DNA from: Verrucomicrobiota bacterium
GTDB taxonomy: Bacteria; Verrucomicrobiota; Verrucomicrobiia; Limisphaerales; J093
DNA length: 64,000 nucleotides
Direction: 5' to 3'
NCBI GenBank assembly: GCA_040766265.1
Contig: JAXGQW010000015.1
Location: forward strand, 14,711-78,710
How positions within the stretch are numbered: the first letter of the stretch is position 1; every line of letters begins with the position of its first letter. A program made the position numbers and the translations under genes. The notes below the pieces were generated by a model. That model had not been told where the DNA came from and ran no database searches. It saw only the letters and a program-made list of their open reading frames with translations. Shown here one piece after another: positions 35,115-49,474 of this stretch.

Positions 35115-35573
35115 TCATTCTTTCCCGCGACAGGGGCAACTGGGCGCTACGGTGGGGCGGTGCGGTTTGACCAGGTTTCCTGTCGACCGCTCCGGCCCCA
35201 GGCAGCCAACCGTACAACGACCGAGTTGTACTCTGCCAAGCCAATCCTCGTCAAACATCGAGTCGGAGCCATGTTGAATGCGGCCGCTACGCAGCACGCG
35301 GCACTGTTCCGAGGTCAAGCGCACGATCGTTCGGAGGTGTCCGGATTGAGCAGCTTGGGCACCAAGCGTCGCTCCCAGGACCGTGCCAGCCAGACGCGGA
35401 ATTCCCAGTTTCCGGGTCTTCGCGGGCGAGAGATCCGTGACCAGCACCGCCGCGATCAGCGCGTAAAGCGGATGGGGAAGTCGCAAGAGCTGAGCGACGG
35501 TGACCGCCAGACCCGCCGCCACCGCCGCCCGGAGCGGCAATTGCAGAGCAGCCAGGGAGCTGAGACGATTCAT
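35115..35573 (-). CDS. FUSC/ArAE-like membrane protein fragment (only the first ~75 aa look homologous)
   Basis: LPLRAAVAAGLAVTVAQLLRLPHPLYALIAAVLVTDLSPAKTRKLGIPRLAGTVLGATLGA resembles FUSC-family N-termini. The remainder is not membrane-like. ATGA overlap with the upstream TRIC gene. Confidence 0.45.
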   Translation of the reverse strand: MNRLSSLAALQLPLRAAVAAGLAVTVAQLLRLPHPLYALIAAVLVTDLSPAKTRKLGIPRLAGTVLGATLGAQAAQSGHLRTIVRLTSEQCRVLRSGRIQHGSDSMFDEDWLGRVQLGRCTVGCLGPERSTGNLVKPHRPTVAPSCPCRGKE

Positions 35574-36343
35574 GCCTTGGGTCCAAGGGGTGTTGGGGCC
35601 GGCGGCTTAACTGCCTCGTCCATGGCGGCTTTTGACGCAGATTCGCTCCACAGGGAAGGCGACACCCAGTTGTACTGGATCGCGAGCATCCGCAACACGA
35701 AGGTGACAAGAATGGAGAGCAGGGCGGCAGGGGTTGCCTCCATCTCGATGCGCACGACCAGGAAAGCGAACAGCAGGCAGCCGGCAAACGCCGCCAGAAC
35801 GTAGAACTGGCCCGGCTTAAAGAGCAACGGCTCATCCCTCACCAGGACGTCCCGCAACAAGCTCCCGCCTGACGCGTTGATCACGCCCACGAGCACGGCC
35901 GCCGCGGTGCTCAGGCCAGCCTGCAAGGACTTCTGGACTCCCACGACCGCGTAGGCGCCCAGCCCCAAGGCATCGAGACAGGCGATGACTTGGTTGAGAC
36001 GCGAGACTCGGGACAGGAAGTATTCAATGCGCACCCCCCGCGAGTCGAACCAGGCGATCATCCTGAACCAGAGTATCAGCCGGGGGCGGAATAGCAGAGC
36101 GCAGCACCCGGCCAACACGATCATCAGCATGTAGCGTGAATCCGACGTGACCGCGGGCGGGCCCTGTTGGATGAAGAGGCCATCGCGTATCAAGCCCCCG
36201 CCGACACCTGTGACAAAGGTCAGCGCAAACAACCCGATCACATCGTATTCGCGTTTCAACGCGGCCAACGCGCCGGTCAGGCCAAAGAACAGGGTGGCGG
36301 CCAGATCGATCTGGATTGGCAAGTTGAATTGGCTGGCAGGCAT
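35570..36343 (-). CDS. trimeric intracellular cation channel (TRIC/UPF0126, YadS-like) family protein
   Basis: Two internal repeats with the Gly-rich motifs FVTGVGGGLIRD and VINASGGSLLRD. 7-TM pattern. Confidence 0.85.
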   Translation of the reverse strand: MPASQFNLPIQIDLAATLFFGLTGALAALKREYDVIGLFALTFVTGVGGGLIRDGLFIQQGPPAVTSDSRYMLMIVLAGCCALLFRPRLILWFRMIAWFDSRGVRIEYFLSRVSRLNQVIACLDALGLGAYAVVGVQKSLQAGLSTAAAVLVGVINASGGSLLRDVLVRDEPLLFKPGQFYVLAAFAGCLLFAFLVVRIEMEATPAALLSILVTFVLRMLAIQYNWVSPSLWSESASKAAMDEAVKPPAPTPLGPKA

Positions 36344-36456
36344 GAGGCAGATTCGACTTCAAGGAAGCGCGGCTTTGTCGGTCCGTTCAGATCGCATCCA
36401 TCTTGCGCAGCTTCGCTGACACGTCCACCGCCGACGTTCGAAAAGAAGGGCTGGCC

Positions 36457-36695
36457 AACCCGGATTTCTCGCCACTTGAAGGAGTAATCTGAAATCCGGG
36501 CTGTGGCAAAACCGCGCCCAGAGCGGGGAAAGCAACGATTCCGTGCGTCGGGATCGTGCTCGCCCAGCAGAACATTCTGTGGCTTTTCGTTCTCTCATCG
36601 GTCGGGGCGCGGTTTTGCTCTCTTAGCCTGCATTTGTACTTCTCCTGTGTGCTCCGGCTTCGCGTTGTCCAAAAGTGGTGAGAAATGCAGGCTAA
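36457..36695. repeat. palindromic mosaic C - B(inverted) - E
   Basis: C 36457..36503, B 36506..36618, E 36623..36695 (TTAGCCTGCATTT...AAATGCAGGCTAA, 13-14 bp perfect stem). Ends 5 nt from the porin stop codon. Confidence 0.8.
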
Positions 36696-36700
36696 GAGGT

Positions 36701-38185
36701 TCATCGCACCAGCTTGTACTGGAAGCTGACTTGGACGCGGTGATCGTCACCGCTGTTGCCGTTTTGGGCCTCTTTGAGTCCGTACAGATACTCCAGGCCC
36801 ACATAGAAGTTCTTCGTGGGGGCCCAAATGAGGTTGGCCTGGGTGTAATGGGTCTGCTCGTAGGCCAAGTCTCCCTGTTCCGGCCGGCCGTCCAGCCTGA
36901 CGTAGCCATAACTGACGGTCGACCGCCATTTCTCGCTCCATTGGTGGCGGTAACCAATCATCGCTCCCCAGGCGGTGAGCAGGTGCAGGTTGCCGAAAGC
37001 GTCGACGACGCCGGCGCTGCCACTGGGAAGGTCCTGGATGTAGCGGCCGATGCCTTCGCCGTAGGTGAAACTGCCCACCAGATTGTCCGCGCCGAACGTC
37101 TTCAGCATGCCGGAAAGGTTCAATCCCCACCCCACTCCGGAGTCGTCGGCCCCACCGCTGGCGTCGAACGAGAGGCTGCGCACGACACCCCCGAGTTGGA
37201 CATGGCCGACCTTGCCCTCCCACCGCCAGTTGCCGGCGAAATCCGGCATCGTGTTGCGCCCGTCGGCGCCCTCAGGAAGGTTGCTCAAATCGCTCTTGGG
37301 CTGTTCGATGGCGAGCGCCGTGTACATCGCTTGCGCCTTGAGCGGAATGGTGTAGCGCAGTTCCGGCTGACGCAGCACTGGCAGCACGCCGGGGCCCTCG
37401 AAATCCAGTGTGTCCGGAAACACGTCCGGATCGTAGAAGGTGCTCCACGTCTGGCCGACTGTGACGTTTGCCACCTGGCCGTAGAAATGTCGCAGCCGAT
37501 AATCCATGGAAGGTTCCGTGTTGTTACCGAAGAAGTCGTTCTCGTAGTAGATCTTCAGGGAGCCGATCGGGGTCGGCGAACGCAGTTCCAGATTCAGGCG
37601 GGTTTGCTTGGCGTGCATGGCAAAGTGCTCATCCTTGCCATAGTCTGTTTCGCCTTCGACCGGAATCTTGGACGTGATGAACATGTTTGGGTTCCCCACC
37701 TTGGAGGAATCGACGATGGCGTCGAGCTTGGCGTAGCCGCCCAACTTGACCCAGGTCTTGGTGCCAAACAGTTGCATGAAACCCTGATAGCTCGGATCGA
37801 GCGGGGCGTTGCCGGGACGAGGAGCGCTGAGATCGTCTTCCTTGATCGTGTCCTGGTAGGGAATCTGCGTGGTGTCATCCGCCAATTCATCGCCGGGAGG
37901 CGGAACCTTCGGCTTCAGGTCAGCGCCCGGTTGTGTCGAAGGTAAGATCCCGACGGGCACCGGCTCTTGGGGCACGGGCTGCACGGGGGGAGGAGCAGGC
38001 TTTGGTTGCTTCTCCAGGTCAGCGATTCGGCGATTCAGTTCCTGGATGGTCTGTTCCATCGCATTCACCATCGACTTGAGTTTCTCCAATTCGCTGGCGT
38101 CCTGCCCATGAACCATCCCGGTCGGACCAGCCGCCAGGACGCTCCCAGCCAAGACAAGGGTTCTCACGAATGAGTTCGTTATCAT
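36701..38185 (-). CDS. outer membrane porin with N-terminal coiled coil (DcaP-like)
   Basis: Signal peptide, coiled coil ASELEKLKSMVNAMEQTIQELNRRIADLEKQ, Pro-rich linker, then a ~380-aa beta-barrel-like region. Confidence 0.65.
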   Translation of the reverse strand: MITNSFVRTLVLAGSVLAAGPTGMVHGQDASELEKLKSMVNAMEQTIQELNRRIADLEKQPKPAPPPVQPVPQEPVPVGILPSTQPGADLKPKVPPPGDELADDTTQIPYQDTIKEDDLSAPRPGNAPLDPSYQGFMQLFGTKTWVKLGGYAKLDAIVDSSKVGNPNMFITSKIPVEGETDYGKDEHFAMHAKQTRLNLELRSPTPIGSLKIYYENDFFGNNTEPSMDYRLRHFYGQVANVTVGQTWSTFYDPDVFPDTLDFEGPGVLPVLRQPELRYTIPLKAQAMYTALAIEQPKSDLSNLPEGADGRNTMPDFAGNWRWEGKVGHVQLGGVVRSLSFDASGGADDSGVGWGLNLSGMLKTFGADNLVGSFTYGEGIGRYIQDLPSGSAGVVDAFGNLHLLTAWGAMIGYRHQWSEKWRSTVSYGYVRLDGRPEQGDLAYEQTHYTQANLIWAPTKNFYVGLEYLYGLKEAQNGNSGDDHRVQVSFQYKLVR

Positions 38186-38276
38186 AGGCGACTTCTGGTG
38201 ATGTGTTGAGTTGTTCGTTGTGTGATTGATAGGATGACTGGACTTCGATCGACTTGCGTGCGTGGTTCTTCCTGGT

Positions 38277-39977
38277 TCAACCCCACCGTGACATCAATAG
38301 GACGATGACCGATCCCCAAGTGGTTAATAACACGTGGCCCACCGGCACCGCGCCGGTGTAGCCCAACACCGCGATGGAACTGCCGGACTTCTCCTGCACC
38401 GCCGCAAGCCCTGGGGTGAAGGTCTGCGCGCCGGATAATGCGCCCAGGATCAGCAGCGGATTGGCCTTCAACACGTAGCGCCCGAAATAGAGCCCCGCAA
38501 TCTGGGGCACCAGAGTCACGAACACGCCGCCCACCAGCAGACCGAGACCCGCCTCGCGGACGGCGGGCAGAAACTCCGGTCCCGCCCCCAGACCGACCAT
38601 CGCGACAAAGCCGGACAGACCGAGAGACTGCATGAACGCCACCGCGCCGTCTGGCACGCGACCGAGAAGAGGGCGCATCGAGCGGATGTAGCCGGTCACC
38701 ACGCCGGCGAGCAACGTGCCGACACTGGTGCCCAAGAAGATCTTCGTGTTGCCGACCGGCAGAAAGATCGTGGCGCCGAGCGTTGCTCCCAGGAAAATGG
38801 CCAAACCGACGGCGACGAAGTCCGTGGTGTCCATGGGGCGCACGATCGTGCCGAGGCGCTTCGCGACCCGCTCGATGGCCGACTCGGTGCCAACCACACT
38901 CAGCACGTCGCCGCGTTCGAGGACCGTCCTGGCTCCAATCGGAATCTCCTGCGTGCCACGGGTGATCTTGCGCAGGAACACGCTGTGGACCGCGTCATCG
39001 CGGGCAATCTCCTGCAGCGGAGGTCCGACGAATTCCTTGTTGCTGACGAAGACGTCGAAAGAGGCGATGGGGACGTCGAGCAACTCGCGGTCGTCTACCT
39101 CGGCGGCCCTTTCCCCCAGCACGCCAACCAGCACCTCCCGTCGGCCGCTGACCGCCAGCAGGTCGCCGGCCTGGAGCACTGTGTCCGGCTTCGGGCTGAG
39201 CAGTTCCGTGCCGCGCCGGATGCGCTGCACAAACAGCCGCGCACCGGGCACGAGTCTCTCGGCGTTGGCCACCTCCTTGCCGACCGCGGGAGCCGCCGGG
39301 TCCAACCGGTAAGCGCGCACCTCGAACGGTTGCCACGCGGAGGCGATGCCCGCTTTCGTGCGCACGACACCGTATTCCGCCTCGACCTTGTCGGCCTCGG
39401 CCCGAAGGTCGATGCCCAACAGCTTCGGTCCCAACGTGCCACAGACATAAATGACGCCGAACGCGCCGAACACATAACAGAGCGCGTCCGCCACCGCGAC
39501 GTGGCTGATCAGTTTCTGCTTGGTCTCGTCCGGAATGTTCGTGAGCGCCTGGATGGCCTCACTGGCGGTGCCGATGGCAGGCGATTCGGTCAGCGCCCCT
39601 GAGACGAGGCCGCCGGCAAAGCCGAGGTCCAGCTTCAGGACGCTGGCCACCACCCACGCGGTGACCAGACCGGCGACCGGCACGAAGGCCCCGAGGACAC
39701 CGAACCGCCAGCCTTGGCCTTTCATGGCCTTGAAGAACTTCGGCCCGACCGAGTAGCCGATGCCGAACATGAACAGGAGAAACACGACCGATTTGGCCAT
39801 GGGAGCGACCGGCACCTTCACGAGGGCGCCGATCAGGATACCTGCAAGCAGCGAGCCGGTCGCCCCACCCAAGCTGAACCCGCGGAACTTCAGGTTCCCG
39901 ATCGCATAACCGAGTCCGAGCGCGAGATAGACCGCCAACTCGGGGTTCTTGGTGAACAGTTGGGTGAGCCAGGGCAT
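38277..39977 (-). CDS. AAE (aspartate:alanine exchanger, YidE/YbjL) family transporter, paralog 1
   Basis: MPWLTQLFTKNPELAVYLALGLGYAIGNLKFRGFSLG..., two TM bundles flanking two TrkA-C/RCK_C domains. ATG 39977 is in frame within the track ORF. Confidence 0.85.
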   Translation of the reverse strand: MPWLTQLFTKNPELAVYLALGLGYAIGNLKFRGFSLGGATGSLLAGILIGALVKVPVAPMAKSVVFLLFMFGIGYSVGPKFFKAMKGQGWRFGVLGAFVPVAGLVTAWVVASVLKLDLGFAGGLVSGALTESPAIGTASEAIQALTNIPDETKQKLISHVAVADALCYVFGAFGVIYVCGTLGPKLLGIDLRAEADKVEAEYGVVRTKAGIASAWQPFEVRAYRLDPAAPAVGKEVANAERLVPGARLFVQRIRRGTELLSPKPDTVLQAGDLLAVSGRREVLVGVLGERAAEVDDRELLDVPIASFDVFVSNKEFVGPPLQEIARDDAVHSVFLRKITRGTQEIPIGARTVLERGDVLSVVGTESAIERVAKRLGTIVRPMDTTDFVAVGLAIFLGATLGATIFLPVGNTKIFLGTSVGTLLAGVVTGYIRSMRPLLGRVPDGAVAFMQSLGLSGFVAMVGLGAGPEFLPAVREAGLGLLVGGVFVTLVPQIAGLYFGRYVLKANPLLILGALSGAQTFTPGLAAVQEKSGSSIAVLGYTGAVPVGHVLLTTWGSVIVLLMSRWG

Positions 39978-39987
39978 AATCAGATCA

Positions 39988-41688
39988 TCACTTCGAGAGC
40001 ACCATCGCGAAGTAGCCAAAAACCGTCAGCAGCACCCCGGACACGGCATACCCCACGGGGAAGCCCACCCACGGAACACTGCTCTGGATTTCCTTGGCCG
40101 CCTCCCGGCACGGGCCCGAGTGCGAACGCGCGCCAGCGACACCGCCCATGAGCACGGCCGGGTTGATCTTCATCAGGTGGCAGCCGATGGCCCAAGTGAG
40201 AATGGGCGGGATCGTGCTGGCGATGAAGCCCGCCAGGAAGATAAACAGCGCGATCTTTCCTGTCAGTTGGGCCAACAACGTAGCGCCCGCATTGATGCCG
40301 ACAATCGCGATGAACGTCACCAAGCCCAGGTCTTCGAGGACATTCCGGGCCGCGTTGGGCGTGCTGCCGAAGAAGCGCAGCCGCGAAACAATGGACGAGA
40401 CGAAGATGCCCGACAGCAGCAGACCGCCAGCATTGCCGAGGCCGACGGAGAAACTGCCAATCGGCACGTTGATCTGCCCGATGAGGAGGCCGGCGACCAT
40501 GCCGACGGACAAGGTCAAAAGGTCCGTGGCCGTGCTCGGTCGCGCGACCCTGCCGAGTCTCTCGACCACCTTGTTAACCGCCGCCTTGAGGCCCACCACA
40601 AACAAGACGTCGAAGCGCTTGAGCTGCGTGTCCGCCCCGACGGGCATGGGCACGCCGCCCCGCTCCAATTTCACGACCTGCAATTGTCCGGCAAAATCCT
40701 CGCTGCGGAATTCCCTCAGCGCTCGGCCTTCCACGGCCTTCTCGGTGATCAGTATCTCGGCCTGATCGAGCGGGATGCTCAGTGCCGTTGCATCCGGCAC
40801 CTCGGGTCCCAGCAGGCCCATGTTCGAGGTTAAGTCCTCGACTTTGCCCGCCAACGCCACGATATCTCCCTTTTCCAGGCGCAGCCCGGCGTCGGCGCCG
40901 AGCGACTCACGCGCACGGACCACGTTCAGCACGCGGTATTGGGGGTAGCTGCTGCGCAACTGGGCAATGGTCTTGCCCGCCGAAGCCGGATTCTCGAGCC
41001 GGTAGGCGCGGAGCCCCACCGGCCGGTAGCCGATGAGACCGGCGTCGTCTACGTTGGCAACGCCGTGGGCCTGTTCATATTCCTTGGCTGCCTTCTTCGC
41101 GTCCAGGCCCCACCAGCGCGGCAGGTATTTGCAGATCAGAATGATCCCAACCGTGCCCCAGATATAGGTCACACCGTAGCCGAGCGCGATCATGGCCGAC
41201 ACCGCCTCGGCAGTGCTGCCGGCGGGAACCTTGTAGGCGCCCTGCGTCACCGCCATCTCCGCCGTGCCAATGGCGGCGGACATCGTTTGCGAGCCGGCGA
41301 GAATGCCGCCTGCCGCACCAGGGGGCAGGCCGAAGAGCCTCGCCCCGAGCACCACGAGCACCAGGCCCAGCACGCTGCATATGACTGCCAGAATTGTGAA
41401 CTTTAACCCGTCTTTCTTCAGGCTGTTGAAGAACGAAGGGCCGACGCGCAAACCGACCCCATACATGAACAAGTAGTAGAAGAGCGACTTGGCGAAGTTA
41501 TCGAGTTGGAGCTTCACGCCATAGGTCGAGGCCCACGTCGCCAGCGCGCAGCCGACGACGACTGCTGCGGCAACCATGCCCAACCCGTAGCCTTTAATGT
41601 TGAACTTCCCCACATACACGGCCAGCCCGATCGTGAAGAACAGGAGGATGTAGGGGTTCGCTTTGAGGAATTCGAAGAATGCTTGCAT
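39988..41688 (-). CDS. AAE (YidE/YbjL) family transporter, paralog 2
   Basis: MQAFFEFLKANPYILLFFTIGLAVYVGKFNIKGYGLG..., same architecture as paralog 1. ATG 41688 is in frame within the track ORF. Confidence 0.85.
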   Translation of the reverse strand: MQAFFEFLKANPYILLFFTIGLAVYVGKFNIKGYGLGMVAAAVVVGCALATWASTYGVKLQLDNFAKSLFYYLFMYGVGLRVGPSFFNSLKKDGLKFTILAVICSVLGLVLVVLGARLFGLPPGAAGGILAGSQTMSAAIGTAEMAVTQGAYKVPAGSTAEAVSAMIALGYGVTYIWGTVGIILICKYLPRWWGLDAKKAAKEYEQAHGVANVDDAGLIGYRPVGLRAYRLENPASAGKTIAQLRSSYPQYRVLNVVRARESLGADAGLRLEKGDIVALAGKVEDLTSNMGLLGPEVPDATALSIPLDQAEILITEKAVEGRALREFRSEDFAGQLQVVKLERGGVPMPVGADTQLKRFDVLFVVGLKAAVNKVVERLGRVARPSTATDLLTLSVGMVAGLLIGQINVPIGSFSVGLGNAGGLLLSGIFVSSIVSRLRFFGSTPNAARNVLEDLGLVTFIAIVGINAGATLLAQLTGKIALFIFLAGFIASTIPPILTWAIGCHLMKINPAVLMGGVAGARSHSGPCREAAKEIQSSVPWVGFPVGYAVSGVLLTVFGYFAMVLSK

Positions 41689-42000
41689 GAGAGGGGACCT
41701 TTCGTGATTAGGGTGATAGGCGCCATGAACCTGCCGTAGCCGCCGACGTGAGTCGGCGCTGATCTCGGTCTTCCGCGGAGCGAATTGGCGCGGACTCATC
41801 CCGCGACGGCGGGACGGCTACGGACCCACGGTTCATGGGGAGGGAAAACGGTCTGCGGGCCGCGCATGGTGACCATGTATCCGTGTCGGAGGGACAAGCT
41901 TCGCGAGTCCCTGGCTGGAGGCTGTCCCGGTTCGCGATCGGGGCCTCGTGTAACTCGGCCCTCCGAGAAGGGATTTTCATGGGGGGGAGTGACCGACTGT

Positions 42001-44772
42001 TTACCTGACGGCTTTCTTTCCGCCGGGGCCGCGTAGTATCTCGGGCTTGATGAGTTTCAAACCCTGGGCCGCGTGGTAGCCGTGGATCTCCTTCACATCG
42101 AGCTTGCGCATGAAGGTGATCGTGTCTTCCGTGATGACCTGGCCTGGCACCATGATGGGAAAGCCGGGCGGATACGGAATGACGAAGTTGGCCGACACCA
42201 TTTCCGGTCCCTTTTTGAGCCGATCGTCCACCTCCTTGCTGGCCAGCTTGAGGAACTCGCAATTGGCCTCATCGTAGGCCATGAAGAAGGCGGGCCGCAT
42301 GTGCCCTTCGTTACTGGCCGCTTTCGGCTGGTCACGGAAGGCGTCGTGAAACCGGCTGAAGTTGGGCAGGTCGGGCACGTCCGTCATCAGCGACTTGACT
42401 CTGGCGTCAAACGCAGTGCGGCCGCCTTGGGCGAGGTTCTGGTCGATCTCGCGCGACAGATCAACCAGTGCTTTGATCAGCAGGGCGGCGTCGCTGTGCG
42501 TGTTGTTGATGTTCGTCTGCACCAGCACGCTATTGCGCGACGTCTTGTTGATCTGGATGTCGAACCGGTCCGCCAGCAGCCCTTTGAACTGGGTGCCGTC
42601 AAAGCCGGCGGCGCCGCAGACCAGGGTGAGCCGCGTGGGGTCGAGCGCGAACTCATCGTCGTCCCAGGCCTTGACGACATCGGTCCAGGTGGAATAGGGC
42701 GGGCCGTAGTCCTTCAATCCGGAGGCGCGGAACTCGGCCGGAATCATGTCCTCCGGCGTGGCCACTCGGAAGTACTTCGAGACGAGCGGATGCGAGTTCA
42801 CCGCGCGGCGGATTCGCAACGCAATGTCGGTCATGCGCAAGGTCAGGCCGTAGCCTTCCAGCTCCATTTGGCGGCGCGCCACGTCCAGTGACGCGATCAA
42901 CTGCAGGTTGGGCGAGGTGGACGTGTGAGCGAAGAATGCTTCTTCGAATGGACCCTCGACCTGGTGGAAGTCTTCGTCCCAAATCAGCATCATTGAACCC
43001 TGCCGGAATGCCGACATGGACTTGTGGGTCGAGTTGGTCTGGTACACCCGGATGCGGACCTTCTCGGGATCGGGCAACAGGTGCAGGTCCAGCAGCTTCG
43101 GGTTCTTGGGATCGAGTTTTCCCACTTTTGACGCCCAGGACTTGTACTCCTCGCGGTAGGCCGGATCATGGTAGCGCTCGGTCAAGGCGGCGGCAGCGCC
43201 CATCGCCGTCCGGCGTCGATGGAGCGGGTTGAAGCGCGCGAACCCAAACCAAGCCTCGTCCCAGAGAAAAACCAGATCGGGTTTGATCGCCAGGCACTCC
43301 TCCATCAGCCGCCGCGGATTGTACATGTGCCCGTCGAAGGTGCAGTTCGTCATGTCAATGACCTTGACGCGGTCCAGCTTGCCACCGGCCATACAGTCGA
43401 ACAGCGCCTTCTTGATCGTCCGCAGCGGCACGCCGCCGTACATCGAGTACTGGGTGAGCGGAAACGCCTCGACGTAGAACGGCTGAGCCCCGCTCAACAC
43501 CATCCCGTAGTGGTGCGACTTGTGACAGTTGCGATCCACGATCACGATGTCGCCCGGCTTGCACACCGCCTGCACGACAATCTTGTTCGATGTCGAGGTG
43601 CCGTTGGTTCCGAGGTAGGCGCGCTTCGCCCCGAACGCGCGCGCGGCCATCTCCTGGGCCTTCTTGATGTTGCCCGTCGGCTCGAGCAGGCTGTCGAGTC
43701 CGCCGGTGGTGGCTGAGGATTCGGCAAAGAAGATGTTGGTGCCGTAGAACTGACCGAAGTCCCGGATCCAGTTCGACCGGAACACGGACTTTCCACGGGC
43801 GATCGGCAGGGCATGGAAAGTGCCGATGGGGCGCTGGGCGTATTTCTTCAGGTTGTCGAAGTACGGGGTCTCAAAGCGGTCTTTGACGCCGTCGAGGATG
43901 GACAGGTGAATCTCCATCGGCTCTTCGATGTGATGAAACACCCGCCGCACGGACGCGAGGGCGTCGCTGCCAGCCAGAGCTTCCGCCGTTCGATCGGAGA
44001 GCAGATAGATGTCCAGTTCGGGCCGGCACCTCTTGATTGCCTTCGCCAACACCGTGGCCAGCGCCCCAGGTTCGATCGCCGTTTGGTCCGTCGGCAGATA
44101 GCGCGCGAGAAACGCCTGCAGGTCCGGCATCTCGAGGCGCGACCGGTACTGAAATCCGTCGATGAGAACCACAGCCTGGAGGCTCTCATTGACCAACACC
44201 GCAAGAGCGGCGTCCTCGAAGCTGCCCGCCTGAACCACCTCGTACTGGAAAGGGTCTTCGGGTCGTCGCAGGCGCTTCAGATCGGCTCTGCCCCGCTCCC
44301 AGGTGGCCGGGTCGGTCGGGGTGACAATCAGCACATCGAAGCTCGGCTTCGGCGTTTCGCCCGCTTCCACATCGGGAGGCAGTGCCGATTCGAGCGGGCG
44401 GATGGCGCTCTCTGTCGCCGCATCCCAAGCCGCTTCCCCCCGCCGGTAGTCGCCCGAAAGCAGCGCGCCGGAGACTTTTTGCACGAGACGCACGAAGGTC
44501 GCGGCATCCCGCTGCGCGATAGCCTCACCGATGGCGGTGAGCAGACGCGGACCTGGGTAGGCCCAGCATTGCTCCAAGCGGATGATGACCTCCAAGAGTC
44601 TTGCGGCCTCGGACCGCAAGTCTTCCGCCTGGGCCCCCTGAGCCGTCGCCCACCCTCGGCTCAGCGCATGCAACTCGCGCCATTGGTCCGTCCGGTTCAC
44701 CGCCGCGGCCAAGATCGGGGTCAGCGTCTGGTTCTGAGGTTTGATCGAGTCTGCTCTTTCATTTGTTTTCAT
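42001..44772 (-). CDS. large PLP-dependent Orn/Lys/Arg decarboxylase family (OKR_DC_1) enzyme, 923 aa
   Basis: FHALPIARGKSVFRSNWIRDFGQFYGTNIFFAESSATTGGLDSLLEPTGNIKKAQEMAARAFGA...STSNKIVVQAVCKPGDIVIVDRNCHKSHHYG...TNSTHKSMSAFRQGS (PLP-Lys motif S-x-H-K). Has a ~330-aa N-terminal extension containing a wing/receiver-like segment. Confidence 0.9.
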   Translation of the reverse strand: MKTNERADSIKPQNQTLTPILAAAVNRTDQWRELHALSRGWATAQGAQAEDLRSEAARLLEVIIRLEQCWAYPGPRLLTAIGEAIAQRDAATFVRLVQKVSGALLSGDYRRGEAAWDAATESAIRPLESALPPDVEAGETPKPSFDVLIVTPTDPATWERGRADLKRLRRPEDPFQYEVVQAGSFEDAALAVLVNESLQAVVLIDGFQYRSRLEMPDLQAFLARYLPTDQTAIEPGALATVLAKAIKRCRPELDIYLLSDRTAEALAGSDALASVRRVFHHIEEPMEIHLSILDGVKDRFETPYFDNLKKYAQRPIGTFHALPIARGKSVFRSNWIRDFGQFYGTNIFFAESSATTGGLDSLLEPTGNIKKAQEMAARAFGAKRAYLGTNGTSTSNKIVVQAVCKPGDIVIVDRNCHKSHHYGMVLSGAQPFYVEAFPLTQYSMYGGVPLRTIKKALFDCMAGGKLDRVKVIDMTNCTFDGHMYNPRRLMEECLAIKPDLVFLWDEAWFGFARFNPLHRRRTAMGAAAALTERYHDPAYREEYKSWASKVGKLDPKNPKLLDLHLLPDPEKVRIRVYQTNSTHKSMSAFRQGSMMLIWDEDFHQVEGPFEEAFFAHTSTSPNLQLIASLDVARRQMELEGYGLTLRMTDIALRIRRAVNSHPLVSKYFRVATPEDMIPAEFRASGLKDYGPPYSTWTDVVKAWDDDEFALDPTRLTLVCGAAGFDGTQFKGLLADRFDIQINKTSRNSVLVQTNINNTHSDAALLIKALVDLSREIDQNLAQGGRTAFDARVKSLMTDVPDLPNFSRFHDAFRDQPKAASNEGHMRPAFFMAYDEANCEFLKLASKEVDDRLKKGPEMVSANFVIPYPPGFPIMVPGQVITEDTITFMRKLDVKEIHGYHAAQGLKLIKPEILRGPGGKKAVR

Positions 44773-44903
44773 GGTGTCGAATTAGTTCTTTCCTGTTGGA
44801 GTGTCGGGCTGTCCCGGGACGCGCTCATGGCCGGGGCGCGGACGGAGGGTCCGCATCGGGATTCTCGGCAAGCCACGCTCATGCCTTTGCCAGTTCGGAG
44901 GGC

Positions 44904-45353
44904 TCATTCGTCATTGGTGTGACTGCCACTGCCTCGCGTGATCGCGTGAGGCGCGGTAGGCTTTTGACAGGCCGGCCGCTGCCCAGCCAGAAGTGCATCG
45001 ACGGCGGGTAACAGGTCCGTCGCCATGGCGCGTTTGAGGACGAATGCATCCGCGCCGGCCTGGAGGGCGGCCTCCCGCACGCTCGGTTCGTCGTGGACGC
45101 TCAGCGCCATGATCTTGAGATCCGGGCACATTGCCCGGAGTTGCTCCAACCACCGGAGGGACTCGCCACGGGCCAGGGAAAGGTCCACGACCGCCAGGGT
45201 CGGTCGCAGCCGCCGCGCAGTTTCAAACAGGGAATGCTCGTCCGCCACCATCACGACGGCCTCGGAGACGGTGTCCAGCAATGACCGCAGGCCTTCGGTC
45301 AAACCGTGGTGTCGGTCCGCTAACAGCACGCACTTGATTCGCTCGACGCTCAT
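44904..45353 (-). CDS. stand-alone response-regulator receiver domain protein
   Basis: MSVERIKCVLLADRHHGLTEGL...LAVVDLSLARG...IMALSVHDE...AFVLKRA. The acidic pair is D-R instead of D-D. The phospho-acceptor Asp, Ser and Lys positions are retained. Confidence 0.8.
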   Translation of the reverse strand: MSVERIKCVLLADRHHGLTEGLRSLLDTVSEAVVMVADEHSLFETARRLRPTLAVVDLSLARGESLRWLEQLRAMCPDLKIMALSVHDEPSVREAALQAGADAFVLKRAMATDLLPAVDALLAGQRPACQKPTAPHAITRGSGSHTNDE

Positions 45354-45614
45354 TCCCGTCCGATCTGTCTGCCGAGTACGCTGGGTGCCGCAGGGCAACA
45401 CAACGCTCGACAGACAGCAGACTGCTCTCGATGCGATTCGCTGTGACCTCGGAAAAGTACGGGGTTGCCCCCTGAAGAACTACGAGGGGCCCCGAAGAAC
45501 ACCCCAAGTCGAAGGCGAATACGGCATCTGCCGAACTACAGCCTCTGGTCCCTTGTCGGACAACAGCCAGCTACGTGTTGTCATTCCCGCTCGAGCCCCG
45601 CGCAGCGGGACCGC

Positions 45615-45942
45615 TTAGCCCGCATAGTTCACACCCCGATGGTGCACGGGCACTCAGACTTCGCAAGAGGACTGCTATGCGGGCTAGAGAAGCAAAACCG
45701 CGCCAGGATCGAGAGATCGAGAACTGAAACACACTGTTCCCATGAGAGACCATTCTCAGGACCGACAGAATGCTGCCGGTTCCATTTCTGGGCGCGGTTT
45801 TGCCAGAGCCCGGATGTCAGACTCCGCGAAGCTTTGTGAAACATCCGGGTTAGCGAGGCGTCGGGTGCCGGTCATCGTGGTGGCCCCCCAACGTGGACGA
45901 GTCGTTTACAGGCCTCGCCAGTCTGCGGCGAAGCCTCGCTAA
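45615..45942. repeat. palindromic mosaic A - B - C - D(inverted)
   Basis: A 45615..45687, B 45692..45803, C 45806..45850, D 45850..45942. Adjacent units abut or share terminal nucleotides. Confidence 0.85.
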
Positions 45943-46577
45943 ATCTCAACGAAGCCGTGCTTGATGGCGAAGTGAAGCAACTCAGCGCTGTTGTGCAGGC
46001 CGAGCGCCTCCATCATCTGGTACTTGTGGAACTCCACTGTGCGGGTGGAGATTTGCAGTTTGTCGGCCACTTGTTTGGCGGAGCCTCCCTCAGCCAAAAG
46101 TTGCAGAATCTCCCGCTGACGCGGTGTTAACTTGGCCACCGGGTCCGTGATTCCCCGCGGCTCGTCCCGAATGGCGCGGAGCACTTCCCCAGCCAGGGAC
46201 GGGGTGATGTAGGTCTGTCCGTTCAGAGCCGCGCGAATGGCAGTGATCAGCTCAGCCGGGGCCGAATGCTTCAGCACAAATCCCAGGGCGCCAGCTTCCA
46301 GCGCGCGTCGGGCGTAGGCTACCTCTCGGTGCATCGTCAGGAAGACCACCTTCACATGCGGATTGTCTGCCTTCAACTGCGCCAGAGCGTCGATGCCGTT
46401 GAGGAGCGGCATGGTGACGTCCGCGACGATGACATCCGGGTTGATCTTCTTGGCGGTGTCGACGAGGGCGCGGCCATCCTCCACCACTTCCACGAGCTCG
46501 AAATCGTGGCTCAGCAGGCTCCTCAAACCCTCGGCCACCATGCGGTGATCGTCGGCGAGCAAGACACGTGGCTTCAT
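45939..46577 (-). CDS. NarL/FixJ (LuxR-type HTH) response regulator
   Basis: MKPRVLLADDHRMVAEGL..., VIVADVTMP, and C-terminal LTPRQREILQLLAEGGSAKQVADKLQISTRTVEFHK. The TAG stop lies within the terminal TTAGC of repeat unit D. Confidence 0.92.
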   Translation of the reverse strand: MKPRVLLADDHRMVAEGLRSLLSHDFELVEVVEDGRALVDTAKKINPDVIVADVTMPLLNGIDALAQLKADNPHVKVVFLTMHREVAYARRALEAGALGFVLKHSAPAELITAIRAALNGQTYITPSLAGEVLRAIRDEPRGITDPVAKLTPRQREILQLLAEGGSAKQVADKLQISTRTVEFHKYQMMEALGLHNSAELLHFAIKHGFVEI

Positions 46578-46639
46578 AAGCAAAGGCTAAAGGCGAGGGG
46601 TGAAAGACGATCGGCGAGGACTCATGGCTTGGCTAGCCT

Positions 46640-49474
46640 TCACCCTTCAGGCTTTCCCGCCGCCACCCACGCCATGACGGTTGTGCCCTGGCCAGGCGCG
46701 CTCTCGATCTCGAGTTCGCCGCCAATCAACTGAACTCGTTCACGCATGCTCGCCAAACCGAGGCTGGGGTGATCGCGTTGGGCGACCCGATTAAAGCCGC
46801 AGCCATCATCCTGCACTGCCAATTGCAGCCCCCCATCCAGACCGTGCAGCGCGATCTTCACGACGCTGGCGTGGGCGTGGCGCACGACATTTCGTAACGC
46901 TTCCTGGACAACCCGGAACACGCAGAGCGCCGCCTCGGGCGAAAGCGATTCGGGGACATCCCGCACCGTGACTTCGATGGGGAGGGAATGGTGGTGTTGG
47001 AAGCGCTCGGCTTCCGCTTTGATTGCCGCCGCGACGCCAAGGTCCTCGATGATCGAAGGGTGCAGCCGATACGAGAGGGCGTGCACATCCTCGCTTAACC
47101 GGATCAGTTCCTCGCGCACTGATCGAGCCGTTTCCCTGGGCGGCGGCCCTGAAGTCCCGGTCTCGGCTCGCCCGACATCGATGGCCAAGCGCGCCAGGCG
47201 CTGCGTGATGTCGTCGTGCAATTCGCGGGCCAGTCGTGAGCGCTCTTCTTCCTGCGTGCGGATCAGGCGTGCGCTGAACGCACGCAGCGCCTCCTGGTCC
47301 CGCTTCCGCTCCGTCACGTCACGCACAATGGCCCACATCGCCTCGGGTCGGCCGGACTCATCGCGGATGAGAAACGTGCGCAACTCCACCGGGAACACGG
47401 CCCCGTCCTTGCGCCGATACTCCTTCTCGTAGACGTCCGAGTATCCGCGAGTCAGGACCTGGTCGCGAATGATGCCAGCCTCCGTCGTTTGCCATCGTTC
47501 GGGCGTCAAGTCCGGGTACGTGAGCCGGCGCAGTTCTTCGTCCGAATAACCCAACATTTCCTTGAAAACGCCGTTGAAGTCGCGGATCCGCCCGGTCATA
47601 TCAACGCTCACAAACGCCTCCCGCATGCTCTCATGCAGAGTTCGGTAGCGCCGTTCGCTCTCGCGCAAACTCTGATCCGCCTGCTGCCGCTCCAGAGCAT
47701 TGGCGAAGATCTGGGCGACCAGTTGCAGGTGCTGCACGAGCGTGTGCGTCCACTCGCGGTTCGCCTGGGTGTCGTTGAAGGCAAGGAGTCCGATGGGTGG
47801 CCGGCCGCCGATCGACAACGGGAGATGCAATACCGTCTTGAGGCCGAAATGGCGCCACACCTCCAAATCGCGGGCCGCCTCCGCCGGCACTTCGTTCATG
47901 GACAAGGCCACAACTCGGCCAGCCTTGAGCTGCCGCAGCGCCCAGGGAAAGTGCTCTCGGGCCTCGAACCGTTCGGGAGTTGCTGGACCGGGGAAGCGCC
48001 GGTAGATGTGCGTCATGACCAGGGTTTCCGAATCGTCAGGCGCCCATTGCCAGAGCGTGGATATATCCAATCCGAGACACTCGCAGACCCGGCGTTGGGC
48101 GTCCTCGATCATGCGGCCAATTTGGCCGGAAGGCATGTTCACAAACCTCGACGACAGATCAGCGATCAGCGCCGCCACCGCCTCCCCTTGGCGGCGTTTG
48201 GCCCGATTCATCAGCAAGCCGACGATCAACGCGGCTTGCATGGCGGCAAACAGGGTCCCTCCGGAAACCAGCCACCAATAACGCTCCCAAAGGCCGGGCT
48301 CGCGGAAACGCACAACGCTGCCGGCGGGCAACCGCGCCTCGCTGATGCCCCAGCGGCGGAGTTCCCGCCAGTCGAATTGCGGGGGACCCGGCTCCTGCGG
48401 AGGGGGCCGAATGCTGTCCGGGGCCTCTCCGTGAAGGATGCGCGCCGCAACCCTCGCCGTGCTCCGGCTCAGCGCCCCGATGTCCATGACCGGTCCGCCC
48501 ACGATTCCCCGACCCAGTTGGGTATCATGGAGACCGAACAAAGGCGCACTGGCGACATCATGCAAGTGGGTCAAGACGCTTTCCTGCCAGAGAGGAACAC
48601 CATCCACATCCACGACCAGAAGCGGGCAGAAGATCGCGGAGCGTGGGGGAAGCGTCCCGCAGCGTTTGAGTATTTCCGGAAAGGGGAGATCGTTCAGCCA
48701 CAGGAAGCCGACTTGATTGGTGAAGCCATGAGAGACGCGCTGGATTTCGCTGAGCCAGAATCTCTCGAGCGGGCTGTTGCCAATCACCACCGCGATATTC
48801 GTGGTCTGAGGGAGCAGATCGACGATGTTCTGGAGCATCCAGGACGGTCTATTCCGTACCAGCGCTGCGGTGTCCTGAGTCGTCAGCACGGTTTGTTGGA
48901 CATGCCGCTCGTCGGTCGCGGCAATCAGCATTGGCGTGTTTGGGAACAGCGCTTGCCTATGACCTTGGGCAAACCGGGTCGCCGGCCCACCAATCGGCAC
49001 CACCAAGTCCAACCGCCGTCCGGAGAACAGGGCCAGCAAATAGTCCACCAACGGTTCTTCCTGTATTGTGTCGCCGGAACGAGCGGACTCGATGGACACC
49101 TCGAAAAGGTCCAGCGGCTCGGGCGATCGACTGACCAGTTCCGCGCGGAAGATCCCCGAGAAGGCGTTGAAGGGGGGAAAGTCGCGGTCAAACGAGTGGA
49201 TCAGCAGCACCCGCCTCGGTTCGGCTGCGGTCGCGCTCACGATCGCCAACGCCAGCGTCAACCATCCGAAAAGCGCGTGAAGGTTCGCTCGCACGCAGGA
49301 CACTCGCCCGTGCCTCTTGCCTCCGCTGATCACTGTTTGCCAGGCGCGGGCTCGCGGCGCGATGATACCCGAAAACGCTGCTCCCGACGTTGTCCGGCCC
49401 CTGGTCTGAGTGACACGGACGCAACAGACGCCAACCACGCTGTTCGTCGGACGAATCGTAGACGAGACGTTCAT
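46640..49474 (-). CDS. hybrid-architecture sensor histidine kinase (periplasmic solute-binding-like domain, TM, GAF, PAS, HisKA_3, HATPase_c)
   Basis: RRVLLIHSFDRDFPPFNAF... (ABC substrate-binding-like sensor), PAS (ERRYRTLHESMREAFVSVD), EEERSRLARELHDDITQRLA (HisKA_3 H-box), GGELEIESAPGQGTTVMAWV. The exact start is uncertain. Confidence 0.9.
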   Translation of the reverse strand: MNVSSTIRPTNSVVGVCCVRVTQTRGRTTSGAAFSGIIAPRARAWQTVISGGKRHGRVSCVRANLHALFGWLTLALAIVSATAAEPRRVLLIHSFDRDFPPFNAFSGIFRAELVSRSPEPLDLFEVSIESARSGDTIQEEPLVDYLLALFSGRRLDLVVPIGGPATRFAQGHRQALFPNTPMLIAATDERHVQQTVLTTQDTAALVRNRPSWMLQNIVDLLPQTTNIAVVIGNSPLERFWLSEIQRVSHGFTNQVGFLWLNDLPFPEILKRCGTLPPRSAIFCPLLVVDVDGVPLWQESVLTHLHDVASAPLFGLHDTQLGRGIVGGPVMDIGALSRSTARVAARILHGEAPDSIRPPPQEPGPPQFDWRELRRWGISEARLPAGSVVRFREPGLWERYWWLVSGGTLFAAMQAALIVGLLMNRAKRRQGEAVAALIADLSSRFVNMPSGQIGRMIEDAQRRVCECLGLDISTLWQWAPDDSETLVMTHIYRRFPGPATPERFEAREHFPWALRQLKAGRVVALSMNEVPAEAARDLEVWRHFGLKTVLHLPLSIGGRPPIGLLAFNDTQANREWTHTLVQHLQLVAQIFANALERQQADQSLRESERRYRTLHESMREAFVSVDMTGRIRDFNGVFKEMLGYSDEELRRLTYPDLTPERWQTTEAGIIRDQVLTRGYSDVYEKEYRRKDGAVFPVELRTFLIRDESGRPEAMWAIVRDVTERKRDQEALRAFSARLIRTQEEERSRLARELHDDITQRLARLAIDVGRAETGTSGPPPRETARSVREELIRLSEDVHALSYRLHPSIIEDLGVAAAIKAEAERFQHHHSLPIEVTVRDVPESLSPEAALCVFRVVQEALRNVVRHAHASVVKIALHGLDGGLQLAVQDDGCGFNRVAQRDHPSLGLASMRERVQLIGGELEIESAPGQGTTVMAWVAAGKPEG

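Follow-up and report, generated by a model that had tools for sequence, protein, structure and literature searches.

A long-form PLP decarboxylase of the Rv2531c family, paired with AAE exchangers and an outer-membrane porin in a candidate acidic-amino-acid exchange operon of a Verrucomicrobiota bacterium

Decarboxylation-antiport cycles are a textbook means of acid survival and of gaining energy without respiration. The known cycles pair enzymes of the OKR (ornithine/lysine/arginine) type or the GadB type with carriers of the APC family, or pair the aspartate 4-decarboxylase AsdA (AspD) with the exchanger AspT. To our knowledge, the AAE family to which AspT belongs has a single well-studied member. 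Here we analyze a 64,000-nucleotide stretch of contig JAXGQW010000015.1 (assembly GCA_040766265.1) from a Verrucomicrobiota bacterium, called the window below, in which genes for a long pyridoxal-phosphate (PLP) decarboxylase, two AAE transporters and an outer-membrane porin follow one another on the minus strand. An earlier interpretation made from the letters of the DNA, the sequence-only reading, had proposed that these genes form a decarboxylation/antiport module reaching across both membranes of the cell. This is still the best explanation, given the conservation of the decarboxylase-AAE pair, its co-occurrence across genomes and the repeated recruitment of porins to it. We interpret the locus as an accessory operon, spread horizontally, that couples decarboxylation to the exchange of an acidic amino acid across both membranes, most probably turning L-glutamate into gamma-aminobutyrate (GABA). 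We give this reading, which is drawn from sequence and gene context, a probability of about 0.6.

The nearest characterized relative of the decarboxylase is Rv2531c of Mycobacterium tuberculosis, the subject of a cryo-electron microscopy paper (PMC12329521) and of a PNAS study from 2026, which describes PDB 9N0O as its PLP-loaded structure (PMC13506015); 9N0N and 9N0P are further structures of it. This long, four-domain protein decarboxylates L-glutamate and is inactive on lysine, ornithine and arginine; it requires Mg2+, is strongly cooperative and has a very high K0.5 of about 0.5 M glutamate (PMC13506015). It provides most of the cellular GABA, 84% of which is lost in the knockout, and residues H405, K406, R576, T606, R718 and N731 are named for glutamate recognition or catalysis (PMC13506015). 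Sequences from Toxoplasma and Plasmodium fall within its similarity cluster (PMC13506015), and the 'lysine decarboxylase' of Toxoplasma has been reported to be a glutamate decarboxylase (PMC5189940, PMC6208699). Neither Rv2531c paper (PMC13506015, PMC12329521) mentions transporters or gene neighbourhoods.

The window decarboxylase (923 aa; 42001..44772, minus strand) resembles Rv2531c over its whole length. Pfam recognizes PF01276 (OKR_DC_1, 1e-68) only from residue 302, together with PF03711. In a phmmer search, residues 9-909 align with 9N0N/9N0O in a single stretch (E 3e-225, about 50% identity) that covers residues 5-897 of the 9N0N chain and so takes in the four-domain architecture. Structures of LdcI, AdiA and SpeC match the decarboxylase core only, at E 1e-51 or weaker. 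When the window protein and 73 relatives were aligned with Rv2531c, H405, K406, K570, R576, T606, S607 and N731 (Rv2531c numbering) proved invariant across all 74. R718 is lysine in the window enzyme and in all but one of the 74, a conservative change. The window enzyme keeps the His-Lys pair as H417/K418, the PLP-binding lysine within S-T-H-K, the arginine in SAFRQGS, the threonine in HTSTSPN and the asparagine in INKTS. The partner-protomer pair T606/S607 is thus in place, as is the positively charged side-chain pocket formed by R576, R718 (here Lys) and N731. On the NCBIfam models for LdcC, CadA and AdiA it scores 196, 176 and 170 bits against cut-offs of 968, 1056 and 1167; with SpeF included, scores run from 138 to 196 bits against cut-offs of 794-1310, a five- to eightfold shortfall. 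Downstream of the PLP lysine, arginine stands at a position that is serine in LdcI and AdiA. Because of the homology to Rv2531c and the low scores on the basic-decarboxylase models, its substrate should be acidic, with glutamate the first candidate. Taken together, these comparisons mark the protein as a probable Rv2531c-type long-form enzyme acting on L-glutamate and indicate that it is not a lysine, ornithine or arginine enzyme.

The decarboxylase is tied to its AAE neighbour far beyond this genome. We sampled 80 decarboxylase loci out of species-representative genomes. Where a decarboxylase shares 58% identity or more with the window's, the next gene downstream on its strand is nearly always an AAE, and for the linked clade this holds in about 64 of 66 informative loci from many phyla, the only informative exceptions being L008 and L029. 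The pair was seen in Verrucomicrobiota, Lysobacterales, Acetobacterales, Hyphomicrobiales, Rokubacteria, Myxococcota, Binatia and others. In the decarboxylase tree, the AAE-linked enzymes form one clade with a support of 100. Twelve decarboxylases at 45-50% identity fall outside this clade together with Rv2531c, and an AAE gene is never their neighbour. Among 201 genomes of the family of Lysobacter niastensis, 15 encode the decarboxylase and exactly the same 15 encode an AAE of the kind that directly follows it in the window (clade A, below). These Lysobacter-family AAEs are 76-80% identical and always adjoin the decarboxylase, at gaps of 36-84 nt; the remaining 186 genomes have neither gene, giving a co-occurrence of 15/15 versus 0/186. 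Three look-ups that started from the AAE in other collections found a decarboxylase immediately upstream each time. The window's own genome, which is 81% complete, holds no AAE genes beyond the two in the window. Several independent tests therefore provide strong evidence that the pairing exceeds chance. Conserved synteny, on which the sequence-only reading had staked itself, is found for the decarboxylase-AAE pair across many phyla.

The loci outside the linked clade have neighbours of their own. Their decarboxylases (L061, L064, L066-L068, L071, L073 and L076) are at least as distant from the window enzyme as Rv2531c is. Downstream of such unlinked genes come a 'biotin carboxylase-like' protein of ATP-grasp type (NF005096, 755 bits), a peptidase of the C45/AAT family and, in many cases, a class III aminotransferase, which looks like a different and perhaps biosynthetic setting. 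In six other loci (L072, L077, L063, L070, L079 and L167) the decarboxylase is split into two or three frames, and in one of them, the complete genome of Pseudoxanthomonas sp. NC8 (L072), both AAE genes are broken too. The broken frames reflect either decaying cassettes or indel-rich assemblies.

The two transporter genes, AAE_A (39988..41688) and AAE_B (38277..39977), also lie on the minus strand. Each protein has about 560 residues with two Asp-Al_Ex and two TrkA_C domains, as recognized by Pfam and NCBIfam, and aligns over its full length with AspT structures, placing both in the AAE family (TC 2.A.81). The pair had been read as a duplication. However, the two share only some 30% identity and come from separate, old clades, so a recent duplication did not occur. 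A tree of 86 AAE proteins from the sampled loci shows clades A, B and C and the smaller C' and D. On TIGR03802, the Asp:Ala antiporter equivalog with a cut-off of 546.95 bits, AAE_A scores 402.6 bits and falls under the cut-off, as do all tested clade-A members at about 400. AAE_B scores 555.3 bits, marginally over it and within the clade B range of 555-567; clade C reaches 629-698 bits, and clades B, C' and D span 555-659. All 37 clade-A members of the tree come from decarboxylase cassettes, and for 36 the gene is flagged as the one immediately following the decarboxylase. More than 2000 metagenome proteins belong to clade A, and those with names are called only 'transporter' or 'putative transport protein'. 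On plasmids no clade-A AAE was found, the best plasmid AAE match being 34% identical. A second AAE of clade B is found repeatedly in cassettes from Verrucomicrobia, Lysobacterales, Acetobacterales and Binatia, and elsewhere clade B members follow AsdA. Clade C stands directly after the decarboxylase in Alphaproteobacteria, Rokubacteria and Chromatiales. Because types A and C have replaced each other at least seven times across the decarboxylase tree, the two clades look interchangeable as decarboxylase partners.

We mapped the AspT binding residues from a 2025 structure paper (PMC12462496) onto the AAE alignment. T130, S132, Y167 and L431 are conserved. Q129 and R495 are common to clades A and C; other clades have L or F at 129 and Q, G, M or D at 495. 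The AAE_A pocket signature is Q129 M131 R495 S496 H497 S498 G499, and the tip of hairpin 2 reads R-S-H-S-G in clade A where AspT has D-T-L-S-A. Clade B has an acidic E131 and an invariant D163, and the AAE_B pocket also has V524. The pocket was considered as a discriminator between glutamate and aspartate. Since Q129/R495 occurs beside AsdA, beside canonical glutamate decarboxylase (GAD) and beside the long decarboxylase, it is not decisive, and carriers with this pair may accept both acidic amino acids.

Downstream of AAE_B, the porin gene (36701..38185, minus strand) encodes a DcaP-type protein. It matches PF19577 at 3e-16 (59.8 bits against a cut-off of 27, profile positions 66-408 of 410) and the 'DcaP-like protein' structure PDB 6EUS at E 1e-13. 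Read directly from the sequence, it begins with a signal peptide, then a heptad-like stretch, ELEKLKSMVNAMEQTIQELNRRIADLEKQ, and a Pro-rich linker. The earlier description of a coiled-coil porin is borne out to this extent: the N-terminal segment looks coiled-coil-like to the eye, and the family is DcaP. A porin of the same type, 58-83% identical, follows AAE_B in L002-L004, L006, L033 and L037. In L164-L167 and in the Lysobacterales loci an OprD-family porin replaces it. The OprD gene sits between the two AAE genes in L166 and L167, close relatives found through AAE_A, and between A and B in Lysobacterales; in the Binatia locus (L164) it follows the AAE genes. Acetobacterales cassettes carry a DcaP-like gene upstream. 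The replacement of DcaP by OprD, or the reverse, at one place in cassettes that are otherwise identical gives good evidence that the module needs an outer-membrane channel to function. DcaP porins prefer dicarboxylates.

ORF (open reading frame) listing and family scans with Pfam and NCBIfam, which form the basis of our gene map, confirm the four genes as co-directional on the minus strand. The gaps between them are 312, 10 and 91 nt, in agreement with the sequence-only reading, the 91 nt between AAE_B and the porin and the 10 nt between AAE_A and AAE_B (TGA, tgatctgatt, ATG) having been read directly. The module was right in its four members and drawn too short in its extent, for it reaches on to a TRIC-family channel gene (35570..36343, minus strand), the last of the cassette. 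This gene matches PF03458 at 6e-33 and the prokaryotic TRIC structures 5WUC, 5H35, 5H36 and 5WTR at E 3e-18 to 4e-15. It also ends the cassette in L002, L003, L033 and L037, after the porin, and in L166 and L167, directly after AAE_B.

The cassette is rare among the relatives of this bacterium. It occurs in four of six genomes of the genus, the window's own included, in two of 19 other genomes of the family and in none of 16 from the rest of the order; across 400 genomes of the phylum there was one other match only, 45% identical. Close matches lie in distant lineages. Lysobacterales decarboxylases are 67-76% identical to the window's, and closer ones come from a metagenome-assembled genome (MAG) labelled Thermodesulfobacteriota (L005, 81%) and a proteobacterial MAG (L006, 79%). 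The sequencing runs in which it occurs were made on wastewater, activated sludge and anaerobic digesters. Because the cassette is rare and patchy in the phylum and has close matches in distant lineages, its distribution marks it as a horizontally acquired accessory element and not a trait of the Planctomycetes-Verrucomicrobia-Chlamydiae (PVC) group. Conservation across PVC genomes, as the sequence-only reading had framed it, does not describe the finding: the pair is kept across many other phyla and is rare and patchy within PVC.

We propose the following cycle. Anionic glutamate would enter through the DcaP-type anion porin in the outer membrane. AAE_A would then import glutamate(1-) against neutral GABA, much as AspT exchanges Asp(1-) for Ala(0) electrogenically. 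In the cytoplasm, the long decarboxylase would convert glutamate to GABA and CO2, using one proton per turnover, a reaction type that is shown for Rv2531c and the Toxoplasma enzyme and is predicted for the window enzyme. The net effect would be cytoplasmic alkalinisation and an inside-negative potential, serving acid protection, proton-motive force or both. AAE_B, with E131 and D163 in its pocket, may be an accessory carrier with a different substrate or direction. More speculatively, the TRIC cation channel could act as an electrical shunt, as ClC does in the Gad and Adi acid resistance of E. coli. Since the enzyme's family acts on glutamate, anion-type AAE carriers and an anion porin fit it better than an APC antiporter would.

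Several neighbourhoods bear on whether the substrate is glutamate or aspartate. GltS, a glutamate-specific symporter (TIGR00210, over cut-off), follows the AAE in L048, L051, L053 and L057, three of these cassettes having clade A and one clade C. In the Binatia cassette (L164) lies a fusion of a GltP-type SDF carrier with a domain that binds amino acids (of substrate-binding-protein, SBP, type). One genome among 401 of the phylum, from another Verrucomicrobiota family (G352), encodes a canonical GAD (TIGR01788, 650 bits) followed 55 nt later by an AAE of 629 aa with exactly the clade-C pocket, Q129/R495 (L168:3569-6908, C9). NCBIfam would probably name this carrier an aspartate-alanine antiporter. 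Pointing the other way, nine sampled loci have AsdA (778-781 bits) after the clade-C gene, in the order decarboxylase-AAE-AsdA(-AAE). The window's own genome (81% complete, so provisionally) has no canonical GAD (TIGR01788), no AsdA and no equivalog-level GabT over cut-off. Its best AsdA score is 35 against 435 bits, and the AsdA neighbour that would be expected of AspT proper is thus absent. Its only PF00282 decarboxylase (C22:10033-11154) carries an NPHKW motif, which we take to be aromatic-amino-acid-decarboxylase-like, and is not of Gad type. With no GAD, AsdA or GabT equivalog in the genome, GABA is more likely exported than burnt. Homology to two characterized glutamate decarboxylases tips the balance toward glutamate.

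Some observations weigh against glutamate:GABA exchange as we propose it, and several of them favour a cycle with the same architecture and energetics in which L-aspartate loses its alpha-carboxyl to give beta-alanine and the AAE swaps Asp(1-) for beta-alanine(0). The partners of the decarboxylase are AspT homologues, clades C and B scoring 629-698 and 555-567 bits on the Asp:Ala equivalog. In an AsdA-first metagenome scan (L083-L162, soil and other contigs; for example L083:2434-10339), the long decarboxylase precedes the AspT-AsdA pair in about 27 of the 34 AsdA loci with enough upstream DNA, placing it inside such clusters; six or so loci have clade C and AsdA without it. Clade C adjoins AsdA wherever a full-length AAE is readable, and its pocket is essentially invariant. 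As partner types A and C have swapped at least seven times while C stays AsdA's invariant neighbour, the pocket appears blind to the choice between glutamate and aspartate. The word 'aspartate' does not occur in the text of the Rv2531c paper, whose in vitro screen names lysine, ornithine, arginine and glutamate only. Moreover, the linked and unlinked decarboxylase clades are separated by 22 fixed differences (for example TFDGH versus TFDGV/I and YQTN versus YATH), some near active-site motifs, so specificity could have shifted. Nonetheless, we consider aspartate, the most serious rival to glutamate, unlikely. Two studied family members convert glutamate to GABA, and in the Rv2531c knockout GABA was the sole amino-acid product altered (PMC13506015). 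Arg576 and the other named residues are unchanged. Glutamate-specific GltS recurs in clade-A cassettes, a canonical GAD is paired with the same AAE pocket type, and next to AsdA a further aspartate decarboxylase would be superfluous.

The glutamate:GABA cycle must also be set against there being no exchange cycle at all. The decarboxylase would then serve glutamate and GABA metabolism in the cytoplasm, as in M. tuberculosis, whether in a GABA shunt or in the control of osmotic state or glutamate overflow, and the AAE proteins would be independent exporters or uniporters of the SucE type, carrying succinate, glutamate or GABA. Some AAE members, SucE among them, export and do not exchange, and simple antiport does not need two different AAE genes per enzyme. 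Rv2531c itself, cooperative and with its K0.5 near 0.5 M, serves a cytoplasmic GABA shunt without an AAE partner (PMC13506015). For the linked clade, activity and transport are predictions from homology and context. Expression data are also thin. Two anaerobic-digester metatranscriptomes yielded short contigs at 100% identity on the decarboxylase (42340-42791) and kinase genes, weak evidence that the decarboxylase gene is transcribed in situ, and none on the AAE genes. We nevertheless regard the absence of a cycle as quite improbable. The decarboxylase is strictly co-inherited with, and adjoins, one AAE clade; porins, and at times GltS or SDF uptake carriers, have been recruited repeatedly, which points to an external supply of substrate. 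In addition, the genome has no GabT equivalog (81% complete), and the unlinked Rv2531c-like clade differs in its neighbours (ATP-grasp enzyme, C45 peptidase, class III aminotransferase). A classical lysine, ornithine or arginine module for acid resistance or polyamines, with AAE in place of the APC antiporter, is suggested by the OKR_DC_1 core in Pfam and by LdcC, CadA and AdiA being the best NCBIfam names. This is hardly tenable. The scores on those models are far short of the cut-offs, arginine replaces the serine of LdcI and AdiA after the PLP lysine, the nearest characterized relative is inactive on all three amino acids, and the partner carriers and porin alike are of anion type.

Upstream of the decarboxylase on the same strand lies a set of regulators, and the family scans confirm the two-component system and stand-alone receiver that had been noted there. 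The sensor histidine kinase (944 aa; 46640..49474, minus strand) has GAF, PAS, HisKA_3 and HATPase_c domains. Its hydropathy profile gives two transmembrane segments, near residues 65-85 and 402-422, which enclose a periplasmic domain of some 315 aa; the sole match of that domain is a sub-threshold one to ABC_sub_bind (E 0.044). A LuxR/GerE-type response regulator (45939..46583, minus strand; Response_reg and GerE) and the receiver (44904..45353, minus strand; Response_reg at 1e-13), directly upstream of the decarboxylase, complete the trio. The kinase gene is kept upstream of the cassette in L001-L004, L033 and L037, 68-98% identical copies of the regulator occur in Verrucomicrobial relatives, and the receiver stands directly before the decarboxylase in L001-L004, L033, L044 and L166. 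The whole trio precedes the cassette in Verrucomicrobial loci and L166; it and the TRIC gene belong to the Verrucomicrobial version of the cassette. From this conserved position, the kinase with its periplasmic ligand-binding-like domain, the LuxR-type regulator and the receiver would probably control the operon. On pSymA of Sinorhizobium meliloti (L163:3388-6276), a protein homologous to this periplasmic domain (22% identity, E 8e-20) is encoded upstream of aspT-asdA, accompanied by a LuxR-type regulator and a lone receiver, and further homologues occur in four of 80 AsdA loci. The same regulatory trio thus seems to travel with AAE-decarboxylase systems. We considered pSymA as a model locus and set it aside, as it has aspT-asdA and the related sensor trio without the long decarboxylase. 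In L166 a Y1-type transposase-like gene (weak PF01797 match; L166:4149-4919) lies between the receiver gene and the decarboxylase.

The 312-nt spacer between the decarboxylase and AAE_A (41689..42000) is a secondary repeat insertion and not an ancestral leader. A blastn search against the own genome showed that it consists largely of dispersed repeat copies, its positions of about 16-139 and 155-283 recurring at more than 60 places. It is common only to L001 (98%); in L003, L004, L033 and L037 the gap is 41-66 nt. We found no Rfam match in it even at E 0.1 and no terminator-like site, and on these four grounds a leader, riboswitch or attenuator was rejected. Dispersed palindromic repeats occupy three gaps of the one operon. 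In the first they have widened the distance between decarboxylase and AAE_A from about 45 to 312 nt. The second is a mosaic, MITE-like (miniature inverted-repeat transposable element), between regulator and receiver (45615..45942), on which metatranscriptome contigs pile up as expected of a multi-copy repeat. The third is a block between the porin and TRIC genes (36457..36695) that repeat-type metatranscriptome contigs also match. An ORF of 105 aa at 36387-36704 overlies this block and has no Pfam or NCBIfam match; it is probably spurious.

The cycle itself is textbook; its parts here and their combination are undescribed in the literature we searched. The sequence-only reading had called the pairing uncharacterized, and our searches agree: for AspT or AAE transporters with decarboxylases or GABA they returned no paper on an OKR-fold long decarboxylase paired with AAE, and we found no description of a DcaP porin or TRIC channel inside a decarboxylase-exchanger operon. 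If real, the system would add a further pairing to the known ones, between a decarboxylase family whose substrate was recognized only in 2026 and a little-studied transporter family. It would give most Rv2531c-family members a first physiological context and a large AAE clade a testable function, and would make outer-membrane pores, perhaps a cation channel too, integral to such cycles in diderms. A broader proposal, which we hold tentatively and at slightly less than even odds, is that Rv2531c-type decarboxylases of environmental diderms do not serve chiefly in the GABA shunt and would supply the catalysis for an unrecognized, widely transferred, envelope-spanning system. Its parts would include a recruited anion porin of the DcaP or OprD family, a dedicated clade-A AAE that exchanges glutamate for GABA and can be swapped for the Q129/R495 'AspT' type, a further AAE whose pocket is acidic and, in the Verrucomicrobial version, TRIC as a shunt. 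If so, many proteins automatically named 'aspartate-alanine antiporter' would be general exchangers of acidic amino acids for neutral amines. That this name is given to carriers adjoining glutamate decarboxylases is in itself a warning.

Set beside the described systems, the window enzyme shares with Rv2531c an N-terminal helical domain, a receiver-like wing, the PLP core and a C-terminal domain, at about 50% identity over the full length. It differs in context, as Rv2531c and its nearest relatives lack AAE, porin and TRIC neighbours, and in lying in the separate AAE-linked clade with its 22 clade-specific fixed residues; it is probably exchange-coupled and not a shunt enzyme. CadA-CadB, AdiA-AdiC and SpeF-PotE share the OKR_DC_1 fold and the operon logic of enzyme plus exchanger. 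In the window, however, the predicted substrate class is acidic, a further domain precedes the shared part of the enzyme at its N terminus, and an AAE carrier takes the place of APC as partner, with no APC-family match by Pfam in the nine minus-strand genes of 35570-49474. The Rv2531c papers describe the long form as a tetramer or dimer, whereas the CadA/AdiA/SpeF type is a decamer. GadB-GadC of E. coli (acid resistance system 2, AR2) probably has the same chemistry, glutamate to GABA at the cost of one proton, and embodies the same idea of precursor/product exchange, to which the co-encoded channel could add a shunt. Its parts are non-homologous, GadB being a group II enzyme (PF00282) and GadC an APC carrier, where the window has a fold-type I OKR enzyme and AAE; without TIGR01788 in its genome, the module would work alike and is not a member.

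On the transport side the module resembles AspT-AspD (AsdA) of Tetragenococcus halophilus (8XW5, 8Y1X; PMC12462496), which has the same transporter family and domain plan and the same predicted logic of anionic precursor in, neutral product out, electrogenically. It differs in that the window enzyme is an OKR-fold alpha-decarboxylase and AsdA has the aminotransferase fold, that AAE_A lies under the equivalog cut-off and carries the R-S-H-S-G tip, and that the window has two AAEs, a porin and a channel. The last two parts have described counterparts of their own. DcaP of Acinetobacter baumannii (6EUS) matches the porin in family, structure and N-terminal coiled-coil-like segment, and the last gene of the cassette matches the TRIC channels of known structure (5H35, 5H36, 5WTR and 5WUC).

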